DNA from: a virus
Lineage: Duplodnaviria > Heunggongvirae > Uroviricota > Caudoviricetes
DNA length: 34,006 bases
Strand: one strand, 5' to 3'
Virus record (IMG/VR): IMGVR_UViG_2734482588_000013
Below the pieces are notes generated by a model that had not been told where the DNA came from, searched no databases, and saw only the letters and a program-made list of their open reading frames with translations. Positions 15,744 through 34,006 of this stretch are shown piece after piece (the stretch's first letter is position 1; every line of letters starts with the position of its first letter). The position numbers and the translations under genes are program-made.

Positions 15744-16211
15744 CTACTTAATGCGCTGGGTGCGGATATATTCCTGCGCCCCTTCCAGTTGCTTCTGCAT
15801 CGTCATCAACCGTTCTCTGAGGGTGAAATAATCCCGTTCAGCGGTGTCTGCCAGTCGGGGGCTGGTTGCATTATCCATGCTGGTGGGTCCGGTGGCTTCA
15901 CGCACGGCTGCGGAGCAACTGGCATTGACCCGCAGGCGCTTACGACCAGCGGCAACATCAGCGTGCAGAGTTTCATTTTCAGTTTTCGCATCGGCTAACT
16001 CCTTCGTGTATTTTGCATCGATCGCAGCAACATCACGCTGACGCTGCTGCATGTCAGCGATGGTGGCGGTCGCCTGCTTCAGCTCACTGACTTTTTTATC
16101 ACGCTGTTCTTTGTAGGCGATGGCGTTATCACGGTAATGATTGACCGCCCACGACAGGCAGACGATGATGCAGATAACCAGAGCGGAGATAATCGCGGTT
16201 ACTCTGCTCAT
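15744..16211 (-). CDS. Rz: i-spanin Rz
   Basis: Protein begins [30 protein letters not shown], matching remembered lambda Rz. ATGA overlap with the endolysin stop. Confidence 0.9.
15806..15991 (-). CDS. Rz1: o-spanin Rz1 (lipoprotein embedded in the +1 frame of Rz)
   Basis: 61-aa ORF with lipobox (LVVSAC), Pro-rich region and C-terminus [14 protein letters not shown], matching remembered lambda Rz1; fully nested in Rz. Confidence 0.85.
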
Positions 16212-16705
16212 TGTTGCCCCCACAAACAGACTTCACGCTCAATCTCACGACGAGTCATCAGGCCTTTCCATTGCTTACCGCCAGCGTATGTCCAGCGACG
16301 TAGCTGGTCACATGCGCCTTTGATATCGCCCTGGTTTATTTTGCGAAGAAGCGTCGATGTTCTGAAATTGCCAGCACCCACGTTGTAGACGAACGAGTAA
16401 AGAGCGCCGCGCGTTGTTTCCGGTATATCGACTTTGATGTACGGGTTAATTTGTCTGGCGACCGTGGCAAGGTCTTTATTCTGGAGGGCTTTGCATTCTG
16501 CTTCGGTATACGTTTTACCTAGCATGATGTCTTTTCCGGTGTGTCCGTGACATACAGTCCATACGCCAACGATATCTTTGTATGGTATGTAGCTGACACC
16601 TTCCAGGCCATCGTCACCACTCGGACCAGTGATGAGCACAGACGCTATGGCAACAGCCCCACCACCAATAGCAGCAGCAACAGCCTTGCGTAATGATGGC
16701 GACAT
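16208..16705 (-). CDS. R: SAR endolysin (phage P21 R-like lysozyme)
   Basis: N-terminal signal-arrest-release segment ([18 protein letters not shown]) followed by a lysozyme core; matches remembered P21 endolysin. Confidence 0.9.
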
Positions 16706-16920
16706 TATTCACCTCTCGCAGCCTTACGCTTATCTTCTTTAATCTTGAAATAAAGGTTTGTCAGATACGTCAGCAAGCCAAATACCAGACTACCCAGCAC
16801 ACCTATTGCCGCCCACTGTGAGGGCGTGACTTTATCGAGCAACTGTAAAAACCAGTACCCGGCACTACCTGCTGAGGTGCCATAGGCGACACCCGTTGTT
16901 AACTTATCCATGGATTTCAT
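16705..16920 (-). CDS. S: pinholin (S21-like holin, dual-start MKSM)
   Basis: 71-aa ORF with two transmembrane segments and a charged C-terminus ([13 protein letters not shown]), matching remembered P21 S21; 1-nt overlap with the endolysin start. Confidence 0.9.
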
Positions 16921-16986
16921 AACCCCACCTCGCAGATGCGGGTGCTGTGTAATGGAAATAAAAAGGCCACCTACGTGGCCACCAGA

Positions 16987-18039
16987 TTATTTCCCCACCA
17001 GCTCGTTTATCTCTTTCACTGTCTGGTTAAACCGCTCTGACTCAAGCTCAACACCTAAGGCCCGACGCCCCAGCGCCATTGCTGCTTTTATTGTGGAACC
17101 GGATCCCATAAAAAAATCAGCAACCAGATCACCAGGTCGACTACTGGCATTGATTATTTGCCGGAGCATATCCGCAGGTTTCTCACACGGATGTTTACCC
17201 GGGTAGAACTGAACGGGTTTATGCATCCAGACATCGGTATAAGGCACGGAGACTGATACGGAGAAATAGCGCCGGAGAGATTTAAACTCATCCAGCAATT
17301 CAGAATATTTGCGATTCAGTGAATCATAAGATGCCACCAGCTGGTGGTGTGGTTGTTCCAGTTGTTGTTCCTGAAACTTCTCTGCCGCTATACGGGAAAA
17401 CAGTGCCTGTAACTTCCGATAGTCAGCCTCATTCGGCAACTGCCACTGACTGGCACCAAACCAGTGGGAAACCATATTTTTCTTACCTGTGGCTTCGGCA
17501 ATTTGTTTTGCCGTTATACCCAGTTCGGCACGAGCATCCCTGAAATACGATATCAGCGGTGCCATTATGTGCTGTTTGAGTTCCCTTTCTTTTGCCGCAT
17601 AGCCGTCACTTTTGCCGCGATATGGCCCCTGGTAATGTTCAGCAAACAGAACGCGCTCTGTGGCAGGAAAATATGCGCGCAGACTTTCTTTATTACACCC
17701 ATTCCAACGTCCGGACGGCTTCGCCCAGATGATATGGTTAAGCACGTTGAAACGTTCACGCATCATGATCTCAATATCAGATGCCAGACGATGCCCACAG
17801 AACAGGTAAAGGCTTCCGGCAGGTTTTAACACCCGCCAGAACTGGGCCAGACAGTGGTCCAGCCACTTAAGGTAATCTTCGTCCCCTTTCCACTGATTGT
17901 CCCAACCGTTGGGTTTCACCTTGAAGTAAGGCGGATCGGTAACAATCAGGTCAATGGAATCATCAGGCAGGGACTGAATAAAATGCAGGCAATCAGCGTT
18001 GATTAAATCAACACTGTTTATTTTTACAGTATTTTTCAT
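16987..18039 (-). CDS. DNA methyltransferase, beta-class amino-MTase (N6-adenine or N4-cytosine)
   Basis: Motif IV DPPY near the N-terminus (LIVTDPPYF) and motif I FxGSGST near the C-terminus (FFMGSGSTI); an internal insertion of about 150 aa includes an HTH-like stretch. Confidence 0.85.
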   Translation of the reverse strand: MKNTVKINSVDLINADCLHFIQSLPDDSIDLIVTDPPYFKVKPNGWDNQWKGDEDYLKWLDHCLAQFWRVLKPAGSLYLFCGHRLASDIEIMMRERFNVLNHIIWAKPSGRWNGCNKESLRAYFPATERVLFAEHYQGPYRGKSDGYAAKERELKQHIMAPLISYFRDARAELGITAKQIAEATGKKNMVSHWFGASQWQLPNEADYRKLQALFSRIAAEKFQEQQLEQPHHQLVASYDSLNRKYSELLDEFKSLRRYFSVSVSVPYTDVWMHKPVQFYPGKHPCEKPADMLRQIINASSRPGDLVADFFMGSGSTIKAAMALGRRALGVELESERFNQTVKEINELVGK

Positions 18040-18189
18040 GGATCAGTAAGCGTAACTCTGGTAGGCTCACTCTGCTTTTGCGCTAAAGCAGTGGGCCGTG
18101 GTTCGCTTGTGACCAGTAAGCATGAGCGAATGGCTGGCAGGTGCTACCAACACCCACCAGCCGCCCATTTTCACAGCAGGAAACCGCCA

Positions 18190-18417
18190 TTACTGGCAGC
18201 GTCTGAATTTATTCCCGTACCCACCGTTATCCTTCGCCAGACCCGCCAGAACTAACTGAGTCAGTATTAACTGGCACCGGGCTTCGCTTACTCCGGTAGT
18301 TCTCGTCATCATGCGTGGCGTTACCCACTTGTCAGCAGGTAAGAAATGAAGGACTGCGGCGGCGGTTTCTGTCATATCTTGCTGTTTTAGCATGTCTTTT
18401 TCCCTTCTGGTTAACAT
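18190..18417 (-). CDS. hypothetical small protein (possible winged-helix DNA-binding)
   Basis: 75-aa ORF with GAAGGGA 7 nt upstream of the ATG; co-directional with and upstream of the methyltransferase gene. Confidence 0.4.
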   Translation of the reverse strand: MLTRREKDMLKQQDMTETAAAVLHFLPADKWVTPRMMTRTTGVSEARCQLILTQLVLAGLAKDNGGYGNKFRRCQ

Positions 18418-18515
18418 GACATACCAATAACTCTTGTCTAAAAAGCCAGCAAGATAAAAAGTCAGTATTCACGACCACCAGCGTGTTTACTGTACTGCAC
18501 CAAGTTTACAGGTAC

Positions 18516-18541
18516 AAAAAAACCGCTCAGCGGCGGGTTTA
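18516..18541. terminator. bidirectional terminator-like hairpin
   Basis: AAAAAAA-CCGCTCAGCGGCGGG-TTT: short GC stem flanked by an A-tract and a T-tract, between the divergent 75-aa ORF and the lipoprotein gene. Confidence 0.35.
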
Positions 18542-18663
18542 AGTTGTGTGGCGAAGTAACCACTCTTAACAGCATATTTGATTTTTTACGATTGTAAACG
18601 GTTGATTATTCATCTCCAATAAAAATAATTGTGTAGGTATGCCCTTAACAATGGATAAGAAAC

Positions 18664-19110
18664 ATGAATAAAATGACTGTACTATTACTTAGCGCAACTA
18701 TCATTTCAGGTTGTACTTCTTCCGTACCATTGATAAAGAAAACTCAATCAGGAAAACCTGAGGGGGTTTATCAAAATACGACAAAAGATAAAGTCAAAGA
18801 TGCCCTTGTGAATTACTGCAATAGTAGAGGGTTGATAATTTACAACGCGGATAACAGCAGTGTTATATGTGGTAAAGAACTGGAAGGCGGGTCTGCTGTT
18901 TTTGGACAAATGTTAATCGGCAATGCCTATTCAACAACCCCGGTATCAAAAGTCAGATTTACTATCGCTCAAGTTAATAACGATACAAAAGTGTGGGCCG
19001 ATATGTGGATGGAAACTCAAATGGCAATGGGGCAAGTACAACAAATGGCTATAACAGACAACGCAAGCAAAAACACTATCCAACAACGTCTTGATGAATT
19101 AAAACCTTAA
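18664..19110 (+). CDS. lipoprotein of unknown function (moron)
   Basis: 148-aa ORF with a signal peptide and lipobox (LSATIISGC). AT-rich, opposite in orientation to the late operon, with its own AT-rich upstream region. Confidence 0.7.
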   Translation: MNKMTVLLLSATIISGCTSSVPLIKKTQSGKPEGVYQNTTKDKVKDALVNYCNSRGLIIYNADNSSVICGKELEGGSAVFGQMLIGNAYSTTPVSKVRFTIAQVNNDTKVWADMWMETQMAMGQVQQMAITDNASKNTIQQRLDELKP

Positions 19111-19152
19111 GTAAATTAATTAAATAAAATGGGGAGAATAAATCGACTCCCC
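19111..19152 (-). terminator. hairpin with U-tract on the minus strand (terminator between convergent Q and lipoprotein genes)
   Basis: GGGGAG-(10 nt)-CTCCCC stem-loop; on the minus strand it is followed by ATTTTATTTAATT. Confidence 0.45.
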
Positions 19153-19154
19153 AC

Positions 19155-19183
19155 ACATTAAACTGATTCAATTACCCTCTCAA
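19155..19183 (-). promoter_or_regulatory. candidate late promoter pR' (sigma70-like)
   Basis: Minus strand TTGAGA-17 nt-TAATGT immediately downstream of the Q stop, the position expected for pR'. Confidence 0.3.
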
Positions 19184-19194
19184 TAAGAGGTCTT

Positions 19195-19560
19195 CTAACG
19201 ATCCATCTCTAGCTCAATTTCTAACATCATTAACATGCCATCAACTACACCTTCAGCCTTTTGCAATAAACGCCCAACCCAGCAATCAGAACGCCCATGT
19301 TTACGGGCAAGCGCCATAAACGTCATACCACCTACATAATAATCCACTAATAAATCGTGCAAATCGCTGTTGTTCTTTTTCAGGCGAGCCATGCATCCAC
19401 AAATGATCATCGCGTCATCGTCACAACATTGCGGGCGGGATTTTACTTTTGAAGGGATTAGTCCTTTAAATCCTGCAGCAATAGACGACCAAGTGACATC
19501 CTCGTGATTATTTGCCACCCATGCCCCCCAACGTTCAAGAACCATTTGAATATCACGCAT
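19195..19560 (-). CDS. Q: late antiterminator Q (QuuD-like family)
   Basis: Protein [14 protein letters not shown]...[31 protein letters not shown] matches remembered E. coli prophage Q homologues. Start at the internal Met with GGAG 7 nt upstream. Confidence 0.85.
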
Positions 19561-19577
19561 CAACTTTCTCCACAAAA

Positions 19578-20573
19578 TCAGGCCAGCACGCCAATTGCCA
19601 GCGCACGATCGATAAAACGAAATATCAGCTCCAGCTGGGAGCCATACTTCTCTTCAAATGCCACGGTATCCGCATGCAGCTCGTCGTGATGCTTTCTGCA
19701 CAAAGGCAACACAAAAAGGTCATGCGCTTTTGTTCCCATTCCACCCTGACCGTGACCTATCAGGTGGTGGGGATCATCAGCGGGCTTTCCACAACATGCA
19801 CACGGCTGTGTCTTAACCCAGCGCGTGTACTTTTCATTAACCCAGCGGCGACGTTTTGGGCGTAACATAAAAGACTCCGGCGACTCCGGATCCACTTTCA
19901 GCGCCAGCACCTTTTTCGCCTTATCCTGGATGATGCTGGTGGCAGGAACCGAAGGCACAAGGTCACTTTCCCGGGTGACAGACGGCACAACAGGCTTCGG
20001 TAATCTCAGTGCCTTACGGGCTGCACTTTCCGGTAAGGCATCCGCCAGGTCATTCCGAATCAGCCACCAGCACAGTTCCGGCATTGTCACAACGTGACTA
20101 TCATCAAAACCGAGATCCCGACGCACAACAGACAACACCCAGCGGGCACAGTTATCCGTTGCCATTGATTCCAGCCGTTCCGTGAACTGATCGCGCAGCT
20201 GGTTATCGCAGTGCCAGCACAGACGGATTGCGCCCGGCGCGTGTCGCATTGTTGTCATGTTCTCGCTGTGCCAGTCGGAATGAGGCCACTGGCAGCCTTT
20301 TTCACGAAGTAACCAGCTTTCAAGACATTCCACGCCACCAGCACGACGGATCACTGCCTCATTGCGGAACACGGCCCGAACGGCAGGATCATCCGCCAGC
20401 GGTTGTGATGCCGCCGGAACGGCACCACTGGCGAAAGATGAATAACGTTCCGGCTCAGGCTCCAGCAGGACACGCCCCTGCATAAACAGGGGCATCAGCT
20501 CTGAACCTGGCCTGAACAATACGATCCCCATACGCGGGGCAATTTCAGGGGTCAGTAGTGCTCTCACGGTCAC
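19578..20573 (-). CDS. DUF968-type protein with C-terminal HNH-like Cys/His motif (YdfU-like)
   Basis: C-terminal [18 protein letters not shown]...[12 protein letters not shown] motif in the nin-region position immediately upstream of Q. Confidence 0.6.
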
Positions 20574-21793: not shown

Positions 21794-22116
21794 ACTTTCA
21801 GGCCCCTCTCATGTAACCAGTGGGTTGCACGCAGCCTGGCGTTTTCCTCACCGGCAAGCAGTGAGCGGATAATCCCGACCGCCTCGCTGTCGTCGTCCTT
21901 CATCGCAGTATGAAGCGTTATCCCCCGGGCCACGCCACGCTTTATCGTGATGACGCCTTTTTTCTCCAGTGCGCGAAGATGCTCCACCGCTGCATTCACT
22001 GAACGGTATCCCAGCATGGTTGCCACCTCCTGATTGGTTGGCGGGAAGCCACGTTCTTTCTGGTAAGAAATCAGCATATCCAGCACCTGCTGCTGGCATT
22101 GAGTTAACGTCGTCAT
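21790..22116 (-). CDS. LexA-N-terminal-like winged-helix DNA-binding protein
   Basis: 108-aa ORF resembling the LexA DNA-binding domain (QQVLDMLISYQKERGFPPTNQEVATMLGYRS) with no peptidase domain; ATGA coupling to neighbours. Confidence 0.55.
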   Translation of the reverse strand: MTTLTQCQQQVLDMLISYQKERGFPPTNQEVATMLGYRSVNAAVEHLRALEKKGVITIKRGVARGITLHTAMKDDDSEAVGIIRSLLAGEENARLRATHWLHERGLKV

Positions 22117-22766
22117 GCCGCCATCTCCCTGACCAGTTTTTCCGCCTGCTGGCGAACCTGCGCCAGAAACGCCTCACCACATGCCTCAAGTTCATCGCGC
22201 CCGATGTAGCTGATTGCCGGTCCCTTCCAGGTCTTGTCGAAAACAGCAATAGCACCAGCGAAGAAAGCGCCTGTCGGCACCTGCTTCTCGTCTTTCGGGA
22301 TAAACCAGGCAGGCAGTTCAAAACCAATACGCCCGCGAATAAAAGCAATATGATCTGCATCTTCCGGCCACCACACTTCGCTGGTGGCAGCTTTGATCAG
22401 GAAAACATAGCGCCCGCCTTTATCACGCATGGCACTGGCATGTTTCATGATGTAACGCATGCCGGTGATGTATTGCCCCTCATGCTGACTGGCGCGGCTG
22501 TATGGGGGATTACCAAAGGCAGCACCTTTAAGCTCCGCAAGACGTTCTGACCAGTCATGCGCCAGCGCGTTGTCTTCCGCCGTGTAATACGCGGTACATT
22601 TGGCGTTATCACCGTCGGTGAACAGATCCAGAACAAACGGGCCAAACAGGGTGTTAATTCCCCAGAAAATGTTGTCCGGCGTGCGCCACTGATCGCCCAC
22701 TTCCTTCAGTTCATGGGCTGGTTTGTTCCGCAGTTCCACCAGCGCCCGGCAATATTTATTACTCAT
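22113..22766 (-). CDS. phage Dam-like N6-adenine DNA methyltransferase
   Basis: NPPY catalytic motif (FGNPPYS) and a W/F-rich N-terminal region typical of the phage N6-adenine methyltransferase family. Start at MSNKYCRAL, overlapping the upstream stop (TAATG). Confidence 0.75.
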   Translation of the reverse strand: MSNKYCRALVELRNKPAHELKEVGDQWRTPDNIFWGINTLFGPFVLDLFTDGDNAKCTAYYTAEDNALAHDWSERLAELKGAAFGNPPYSRASQHEGQYITGMRYIMKHASAMRDKGGRYVFLIKAATSEVWWPEDADHIAFIRGRIGFELPAWFIPKDEKQVPTGAFFAGAIAVFDKTWKGPAISYIGRDELEACGEAFLAQVRQQAEKLVREMAA

Positions 22767-33017: not shown

Positions 33018-33437
33018 TTACTCATCATCAATAGATGATACGCAATATTTATTTTTAAATTTAAGGTTCTTTGGCGTAACTTCATCAGATATATCAAAAC
33101 CGTCCAGAATTCTATTGAATGTAGCTTCTGGCATATCATCATGAACAGAAATCTCACCCGATCGCTGCTTTCTAACCATGTTATCCACTCGCCAAATTAT
33201 AGCTTCAGCGTAAACAACATAACTTGGATGCTTGATAAAGCGATGATCACCAGAATTCAAGACGCAAGACGGATCGTGGGGGACACCATCCTTGATACTA
33301 GAAATATTAACAACTAAAACACAATAACAATCGTTAACGGGGTAATAAACAGGATCATTACAAATCACATGAAGATGATTGCATGGCCCAGTTGGGGCAA
33401 GCACAGTTCCTTTCCTGTATGGCTGATAATCCGTCAT
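33018..33437 (-). CDS. uncharacterised protein, candidate toxin partner of the Panacea-domain protein
   Basis: 139-aa ORF whose start overlaps the Panacea ORF stop (ATGA). AT-rich, no recognisable family; Cys/His-rich N-terminal half. Confidence 0.5.
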   Translation of the reverse strand: MTDYQPYRKGTVLAPTGPCNHLHVICNDPVYYPVNDCYCVLVVNISSIKDGVPHDPSCVLNSGDHRFIKHPSYVVYAEAIIWRVDNMVRKQRSGEISVHDDMPEATFNRILDGFDISDEVTPKNLKFKNKYCVSSIDDE

Positions 33438-34006
33438 GATAATTGCAAAGAAAATTCCTTAAGTTTCTGAGATTCTTCCATTTTGCCAATTATACGATTA
33501 GCCTCATCCTCGCTTTTACCCTCACTGATCAGCATTTCTTTCAGGTCTATAGGCTTACGAGAATTGCCAGGATTGTGCCACTCTGGACAAACGCTTTCTA
33601 AATGCGTCATGTTTGCGAGATCAAATCGGTTCATATGCCCATACAGAGAATAGATTTCATCTAAAATCCGGATATCTGCACGGCTCAACTCATCAAAGAC
33701 CTCGTCTGCATCCATTTCCCTCGGATCTGAACGCAACAACACATCATGCCCGTTCGTCTCTATCAAGTTGTACCAGTAGTCACCAATGCCTTCAGCCTTA
33801 CCACGAATCAAGTTCAGCGTATTCGACATGACTGGACCAAATTTCATAGAGTAAAGGCTATCTTCGCCGATCATCCTGCCATGCTTCAAAATCGACTTGC
33901 GGTTAGACAGATAGAGCAGCTTCATCAATTTCAGATATGCCATGCGCCCACCTCGCTTAAGAAGTAGGTATGCAGCCATTTGAGCTACTTTTTCTTCGCA
34001 AAACAT
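33434..34006 (-). CDS. Panacea-domain (DUF4065) protein, PanA/SocA-like antitoxin candidate
   Basis: Motifs YLKLMKLLYLSNRKS...GEDSLYSMKFGPVMSNT fit the Panacea domain pattern. The ORF starts at the window edge, so the true start may lie beyond it. AT-rich and opposite in strand to the adjacent phage operon. Confidence 0.6.
   Translation of the reverse strand: MFCEEKVAQMAAYLLLKRGGRMAYLKLMKLLYLSNRKSILKHGRMIGEDSLYSMKFGPVMSNTLNLIRGKAEGIGDYWYNLIETNGHDVLLRSDPREMDADEVFDELSRADIRILDEIYSLYGHMNRFDLANMTHLESVCPEWHNPGNSRKPIDLKEMLISEGKSEDEANRIIGKMEESQKLKEFSLQLS

Follow-up and report, generated by a model that had tools for sequence, protein, structure and literature searches.

What is a DNA methyltransferase gene with a long central segment likely to do among the late genes of a prophage, and how might a cell tolerate it? 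We addressed this question for a 34,006-nucleotide (nt) stretch of Caudoviricetes DNA (IMG/VR record IMGVR_UViG_2734482588_000013), the whole of which is referred to here as the window. An intact open reading frame (ORF) of 350 amino acids (aa) occupies positions 16987..18039 on its minus strand, stop codon included. The translation matched the N6_N4_Mtase profile PF01555 at 145.9 bits against a cut-off of 26.7 (E = 2.2e-42; aa 29-341, profile positions 1-220 of 221) and phrog_67 (E = 2e-102). Regular-expression searches of the translation, supplemented for the first motif by reading of the sequence, located the catalytic motif IV, DPPY, at aa 35-38 (17926..17937, minus strand) and the S-adenosylmethionine (AdoMet)-binding motif I, FMGSGST, at aa 310-316 (17092..17112, minus strand). 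D35, P36, P37 and Y38 of the former and F310, G312, S313, G314, S315 and T316 of the latter were invariant among 26 homologues. From the N terminus, motif IV comes first, then the recognition region and then motif I, which is the beta-class order, and the Rossmann-type core superimposes on solved beta-class members. Profile, motif order and core together place the predicted product among the beta-class N6/N4 amino-methyltransferases, as the initial annotation had proposed from DPPY preceding FxGSGST.

Within this class, the ORF is very probably an orthologue of M.EcoGII, that is, a solitary prophage methyltransferase that would make N6-methyladenine (m6A) in any sequence context; the coding sequence is accordingly listed here as an M.EcoGII-family beta-class adenine DNA methyltransferase. 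Alignment with M.EcoGII was full length and colinear, with 281 identities in 351 columns and just two 1-residue gaps, both C-terminal to the central segment and at probable misreads of the reference. The sequences of M.EcoGII, of the reconstructed ancestor Anc291 and of SUPREM had been machine-read from a supplementary PDF table with evident read errors, and all identities to them hold to within a point or two; the M.EcoGII reference was corrected at three apparent read errors, and the corrected form has no exact match in the sequence collection. With that tolerance, the window protein shares 310 of 351 positions (88%) with Anc291, 246 of 351 with SUPREM and, within the target-recognition domain (TRD), 60 of 78 (77%) with M.EcoGII; the window allele is nearer Anc291 than M.EcoGII itself. 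M.EcoGII (and M.EcoGI) of E. coli O104:H4 C227-11 (GenBank EGT69837.1) resembles it in length (349 versus 350 aa), in identity and colinearity, in the order DPPY ... FxGSGST, in what is probably a common central helix–turn–helix (HTH)-type TRD with a linker, in being prophage-borne and in lacking a restriction partner. The difference comes to about 70 substitutions, 18 of them within the 78-residue TRD.

M.EcoGII methylates DNA adenines without sequence specificity; it is prophage-encoded, unexpressed in the lysogen and deleterious under constitutive expression (PMC5778455), and its being silent in lysogens and toxic is also described in PMC12707154. Six reconstructed ancestors between M.EcoGII and its nearest site-specific relative, among them Anc291 with its demonstrated activity, were all active on DNA and RNA (PMC11551740). 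Judged by these comparisons, the window allele sits deep within the non-specific clade. The enzyme is thus of an already known kind, essentially a known gene with nothing new in itself, and its public label of 'site-specific DNA-methyltransferase' is almost certainly wrong. M.EcoGII-type biochemistry is well established, and the enzyme is sold as a reagent. The gene is one further copy of a very common prophage gene: the same DNA was found in 1251 of the 5426 complete E. coli genomes (589 records at 99% identity or more), as well as in phages cdtI, mEp460, Ayreon and SfV and in Stx2c phages. The initial annotation would have counted the lack of an attributable methylation motif against its reading; such a test would misfire, because the M.EcoGII family is defined by lacking sequence specificity. 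The methylome evidence to expect is motif-less m6A in virion DNA, not a motif.

How, then, should the long middle of the protein be understood? The initial annotation had described a 150-aa insertion with an HTH-like stretch and suggested an unusual target-recognition or regulatory insert. A central non-core segment does exist (aa 135-260; 17260..17637, minus strand) and carries, at aa 167-193, an HTH_3 match too weak for the Pfam cut-off (E = 0.043). It is about 70-95 aa longer than its counterpart in small solved enzymes; for example, query residues 115 to 282 span what residues 110 to 184 span in 9c3u. However, it sits exactly at the usual beta-class target-recognition position and is colinear, without gaps, with residues 135-260 of M.EcoGII, whose central region has been modelled in print as a four-helix-bundle TRD with an HTH, followed by an interdomain linker (PMC11551740, section 24). 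The published boundaries, transferred through the alignment, place the TRD at aa ~160-237 (17329-17562, minus strand), with the HTH near aa 167-193. An AlphaFold2 (AF2) model, built from an input alignment spanning 76-93% identity and divided at the published domain boundaries, has helices at aa 146-173, 177-184, 190-194, 204-223 and 231-254, at confidence (pLDDT) values of 57-80; these fit the published description of a four-helix HTH domain with a charged helical linker. We therefore read the segment as most probably the family's normal TRD plus helical interdomain linker, already described for M.EcoGII (PMC11551740): the segment with its HTH-like stretch stands, whereas its status as an insertion, and as an unusual or regulatory one, finds no support. 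The solved beta-class enzymes M.BceJIV, M.MboIIA, M.RsrI and CcrM, as well as M.PflMI, have shorter or unrelated recognition regions and recognize defined sites, and several of them partner restriction enzymes.

No such partner was found for the window gene. Its neighbours are Q, a small ORF and the holin, lysozyme and Rz genes, with no adjacent cognate endonuclease gene, and the annotation of the near-identical prophage of E. coli APEC 102026, which matches the window at 99.6% identity along all of its 34 kb, contains no restriction endonuclease. The earlier statement that no endonuclease lies nearby thus extends, by that annotation, to the entire window, in which a linked enzyme elsewhere could have contradicted it; a Type II restriction-modification system was rejected on the same ground. 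By its gene context, the methylase is a solitary (orphan) methyltransferase.

If the enzyme is known, the sequence in front of it seems to be the sole new element at the locus. Conservation is unusually high in the 150 nt that part the small ORF from the methylase. There, alignment, folding and a covariance model point to a structured leader of 138 nt that ends with the methylase ATG (18037..18174, minus strand). Fifty-four distinct leaders, drawn from Escherichia through to Providencia, Yersinia and Ewingella, gave a MAFFT alignment with a mean column identity of 81% and a near-constant length of 136-142 nt. Identity to the window was higher for the leader than for the coding sequence in 45 of 53 comparisons (medians 82% versus 73%). 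The proposed fold comprises, in leader numbering, P1 (7-12:48-53), P2 (13-24:32-43), P3 (78-90:97-111) and a long-range helix P4 (61-71:123-134), which pairs positions -2 to -13 before the methylase ATG; no Shine–Dalgarno sequence is visible before that ATG. The minimum-energy fold of the window leader coincides with this comparative structure (z = -4.3). Across the alignment, 86.7% of cells pair, compared with at most 45% when the partners are slid, and double-sided changes that keep the pair occur in 16 of 40 pairs and 54 cells, against 8.5 and 15.7 in shuffles, of which none of 500 scored as high. Support also exists for an alternative helix, 45-50:68-73, which cannot form together with P1 and the lower part of P4. 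Its pairing reaches 90%, three of its pairs covary, and it is only 1.5 kcal/mol above the minimum, so that the leader is predicted to be bistable within that range. Its support comes mainly from Enterobacteriaceae, and it is not kept in the Providencia and Morganella group.

The leader is tied to the methylase gene throughout. In 58 of 80 diverse Enterobacterales loci and in all 85 loci with E. coli-type methylase copies (at least 83% identical), the covariance model found a single copy, whose end always falls at the methylase ATG, and in every complete locus examined the leader directly precedes the gene. In Xenorhabdus and Photorhabdus the leader is a shorter variant in which P1 and P2 are kept. 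Of 80 IMG/VR loci retrieved by a pattern scan, 79 have a methylase start 40-90 nt downstream; the remaining locus has a truncated methylase. On one IMG/VR contig (L181:2145-2443), the leader is kept and the methylase is reduced to its last 66 residues, a natural internal deletion. A 191-nt search of Rfam 15 gave no minus-strand match at E values up to 10 and only chance-level plus-strand matches, and a literature search for the leader sequence returned nothing relevant. An STnc130 match between 15000 and 20000 was discarded as sub-threshold (E = 0.9) and on the opposite strand. A GATC at -6 to -3 before the methylase ATG (listed as window positions 18131-18134) is near-invariant and forms part of P4 (UGAUC:GGUCA); the 5′ strand of P4 reads GAUCA in 16 of the 54 leaders, which creates a second GATC. 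These sites are possibly relevant, as Dam is present in the host and the prophage itself codes for a Dam-family methylase.

Upstream of the leader lies the small ORF of 67 aa (18190..18393, minus strand), a member of phrog_331 (E = 5e-26), a family of unknown function. Of 77 diverse loci, 54 have an ORF of this kind, with the conserved core RCQLILTQLxxAGL, on the strand of the methylase and 90-190 nt upstream of it. The other 23 lack it, and because 20 of these keep the leader, the leader is independent of the small ORF in cis. The small ORF had no Pfam or NCBIfam match; its single-sequence AF2 model was poor (three helices, pLDDT 57) and profile matches to the PDB were weak (E = 0.06 or worse). 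The helical content would be compatible with an HTH or winged helix, a fold that is a guess. The arrangement recalls com-mom of phage Mu, in which a small ORF and an mRNA structure masking the start of the modification gene likewise come before the gene of a toxic modification enzyme. Mom is a toxic, broadly acting DNA-modification enzyme that is made only late and is not a methyltransferase, and Com is a zinc-finger protein; by contrast, the small ORF of the window has just one invariant Cys, which rules out a Com-like zinc finger, and ORFs of its type are absent from 23 of 77 loci, most of which keep the leader. The resemblance is confined to regulatory logic. The 'silent in lysogens and toxic' side of the parallel is drawn from PMC12707154.

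What does the leader do? It has the features that mark a cis-regulatory mRNA leader, namely compensatory changes, placement at a start codon and mutually exclusive helices, and it probably serves as a dedicated cis-regulatory RNA through which translation of a toxic enzyme is limited or switched. More specifically, and only tentatively, it may be an undescribed cis-regulatory RNA dedicated to M.EcoGII-family genes, with a bistable fold that hides a Shine–Dalgarno-less start and is opened by a trigger. Candidate triggers include the 67-aa protein (compare Com and mom of phage Mu), AdoMet (SAM) or S-adenosylhomocysteine (SAH), and the enzyme's own methylation of RNA as feedback. The conserved 138 nt could instead act as DNA, being a promoter, an operator or a protein-binding site, for example for the small-ORF product or for Dam/OxyR-type control through GATC. 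Many leader positions are indeed invariant irrespective of pairing, the GATC at -6 to -3 is near-invariant, 54 of 77 loci have upstream a small ORF whose product possibly binds DNA, and in phage Mu Dam sites control mom. Against a role as DNA stand pair-keeping double changes in excess of all 500 shuffles, pairing that is 86.7% and falls to 45% or less when partners are slid, and a single-sequence thermodynamic minimum equal to the comparative structure. The element also lies inside the transcription unit, ends at the start codon and persists in loci without the small ORF. We consider a role as DNA unlikely.

The genes around the cassette suggest when it would be expressed. Along the minus strand the order is a DUF968 protein, Q, an opposite-strand lipoprotein-like ORF, a hairpin, the 67-aa ORF, the methylase, a second hairpin, pinholin, lysozyme and Rz. 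The antiterminator Q (19195..19560, minus strand; PF06530, E = 2e-51, and PGAP annotation of the near-identical prophage) is the upstream late-operon regulator. Directly downstream of the methylase, Pfam matches define a lysis cassette (15744..16920, minus strand) consisting of a phage-21-type pinholin (16705-16920; PF04971, E = 2e-35), a lysozyme (16208-16705; PF00959, E = 2e-44) and Rz (15744-16223; PF03245, E = 4e-49), all on the minus strand. The pinholin has a dual-start MKSMDK, and the N terminus of the lysozyme is hydrophobic, as is typical of signal-anchor-release endolysins. The methylase stop is separated from the holin ATG (16920) by 66 nt, in agreement with the initial placement in the late region just upstream of the holin. 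A terminator scan found a hairpin with a T-run at the 5′ edge of the methylase cassette, a candidate tR'-type terminator (18511..18534, minus strand), and another, GGCCACGTAGGTGGCC with a T-run, between the methylase stop and the holin start (16955..16980, minus strand). Ayreon and SfV have annotated terminators at positions equivalent to both, and terminator-like sites are enriched over 16600-19700 (10 versus 2.8 expected).

Comparison with other phages delimits the cassette. Homology to Ayreon, which has a different Q, spans 15967-18539, ending exactly at the upstream hairpin, and resumes past Q at 19582; the Q module has therefore been swapped as one piece, and the methylase is part of the late module downstream. 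In SfV, cdtI and Ayreon, other Q and holin types bracket the same succession, which runs from a terminator through the small ORF and the methylase to a second terminator. These phages and mEp460 (the methylase being Orf48 in Shigella phage SfV) show 97-99.7% DNA identity to this cassette, and they likewise have terminator, small ORF, leader, methylase and terminator between Q and lysis genes; they differ in the flanking Q and holin modules, as expected in mosaic phages, and their records state no specificity. In a Shiga toxin (Stx) phage (locus L005), Q and stxA flank the methylase; stx is known to need Q-mediated read-through from pR' for its expression. In the set of 80 loci from different Enterobacterales species, the closest ORF upstream with 100 aa or more matched a named Q family in 31 and DUF1133, whose Q-likeness could not be confirmed, in a further 14, and the first downstream ORF matched a holin family in 43. 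Placement of the gene in the late operon, between Q and the lysis genes, is well supported. No tRNA genes, such as those of Stx phages, were found between Q and the lysis genes.

Taken together, the following sequence of events can be proposed. In the lysogen the methylase would be silent, because late transcripts would end at 18511-18534, the site of the hairpin with its T-run. Upon induction, RNA polymerase modified by Q would pass this terminator, transcribe the small ORF, leader and methylase, cross the second hairpin and run into the lysis genes. With positions -2 to -13 paired and no visible Shine–Dalgarno sequence, translation of the toxic enzyme would probably be throttled or switched at the RNA level. 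The enzyme would then methylate many adenines on replicating phage DNA shortly before packaging. In the next host, progeny genomes would thereby be masked from adenine-sensitive restriction of Types I, II and III, at the cost of becoming sensitive to m6A-dependent nucleases. Protection of progeny DNA is the role proposed for the M.EcoGII family (PMC5778455, PMC12707154).

Several points weigh against this account or loosen it. The read errors in the reference make the identity to M.EcoGII approximate (~80%, give or take a point or two), the non-specificity of the window allele is predicted from sequence comparison, and the 18 of 78 TRD positions that differ from M.EcoGII leave room for some sequence preference. 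The AF2 methylase model is modest (mean pLDDT 68, and 57-80 over the TRD). The sole pR' candidate is a 9/12 consensus match at 18571-18598, in a region where promoter-like sites are no commoner than in shuffles (7 versus 5.4). With a terminator-like hairpin on either side of the cassette and a leader predicted to occlude the start, the amount of enzyme made may be limited. In the papers cited, the anti-restriction role in real infection is a proposal (PMC5778455, PMC12707154), and a literature search on the in vivo role of EcoGII in lambdoid, Shiga toxin and induction contexts found nothing relevant.

These points leave room for other accounts of the enzyme. It might be a sequence-specific solitary methyltransferase whose HTH-containing domain reads a defined motif: databases, PGAP among them, name the protein a site-specific DNA-methyltransferase, the predicted HTH four-helix-bundle TRD is of a type that usually reads sequence, the TRD is just 77% identical to that of M.EcoGII, and M.PflMI, with a similar predicted TRD, is site-specific (PMC11551740). 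However, the database name is a generic rule-based label, and M.PflMI, the nearest site-specific relative, is only 27% identical to M.EcoGII and has no charged linker (PMC11551740), whereas the window protein probably has the linker, is colinear with M.EcoGII at about 80% identity and reaches 88% to Anc291; we see little prospect for a specific enzyme. Its main substrate or purpose might alternatively be something other than progeny DNA, either RNA or the host chromosome, methylated as a late takeover or timing device. M.EcoGII and its relatives do methylate RNA and DNA:RNA hybrids in vitro (PMC5778455; PMC11551740), expression harms the cell, and the literature found holds no in vivo demonstration of anti-restriction. 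Against this, M.EcoGII works on RNA about 100 times more slowly than on DNA (V0 0.12 versus 11.12; Supplementary Table S3, PMC11551740), expression just before lysis would leave little time for host reprogramming, and a late position beside the lysis genes suits an enzyme that modifies DNA about to be packaged, which together make such a purpose decidedly unlikely. Finally, the gene might be a decaying, never-expressed remnant of a cryptic prophage, given that M.EcoGII was described as unexpressed on a cryptic prophage (PMC5778455) and that no integrase is visible in the window. Yet the ORF is intact with invariant catalytic motifs, the exact protein is present on at least 1000 contigs (usually under the label 'site-specific DNA-methyltransferase'), the gene is found in the deposited phage genomes of SfV, cdtI, mEp460 and Ayreon, and coding sequence and leader are conserved from Escherichia to Providencia and Yersinia. 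That the gene is a dying remnant is scarcely credible.

An active M.EcoGII orthologue would share the prophage with a second methyltransferase, a phage Dam-family enzyme with an NPPY motif (22113..22766, minus strand; PF05869 Dam, E = 1e-45; TIGR01712, 253.9 bits against a cut-off of 97). Its neighbours are the replication-region genes on one side and those for RusA, KilA-N, DUF968 and Q on the other, an early-right (nin-equivalent) position that bears out the earlier report of a Dam-like NPPY methylase in the nin region. The two are alike as solitary phage adenine methyltransferases but are of unrelated fold classes; they also differ in motif (NPPY in the Dam-family enzyme), in the early-region position of the Dam-family enzyme and in its presumably being site-specific. 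A two-methyltransferase strategy, with the enzymes acting at different times, is plausible.

Other neighbours bear on the locus less directly. The DUF968 protein (19578-20573, minus strand), directly upstream of Q and kept across the Ayreon Q swap, has a weak HNHc_6 match and is labelled 'HNH endonuclease' in SfV and cdtI. It was rejected as a restriction partner, being a recurrent Q neighbour (in SfV, cdtI and the Stx-phage locus L005) that the Q module separates from the methylase. Between Q and the cassette, a 148-aa ORF on the plus strand (18664-19110) has an N terminus, MNKMTVLLLSATIISGC, that resembles a lipoprotein signal peptide; it matched phrog_3152 and no Pfam or NCBIfam family, and cdtI has two other opposite-strand ORFs in its place. 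Among flanking ORFs in other species (loci L086-L165), six match the Thoeris anti-defence Tad2-like domain (PF11195) and one a BsuBI/PstI restriction endonuclease, which suggests that the Q-to-holin interval is a hotspot for defence and counter-defence cargo. Near the prophage end, a Panacea (SocA-like antitoxin) domain protein (33434-34006, minus strand) and an adjoining 139-aa ORF (33018-33437) may form a toxin-antitoxin pair.

Returning to how a cell might tolerate such a gene, the leader, if it is the regulatory RNA proposed here, could explain why cells tolerate a gene that is harmful when constitutively expressed, and it would give the M.EcoGII family a defined, testable RNA element.

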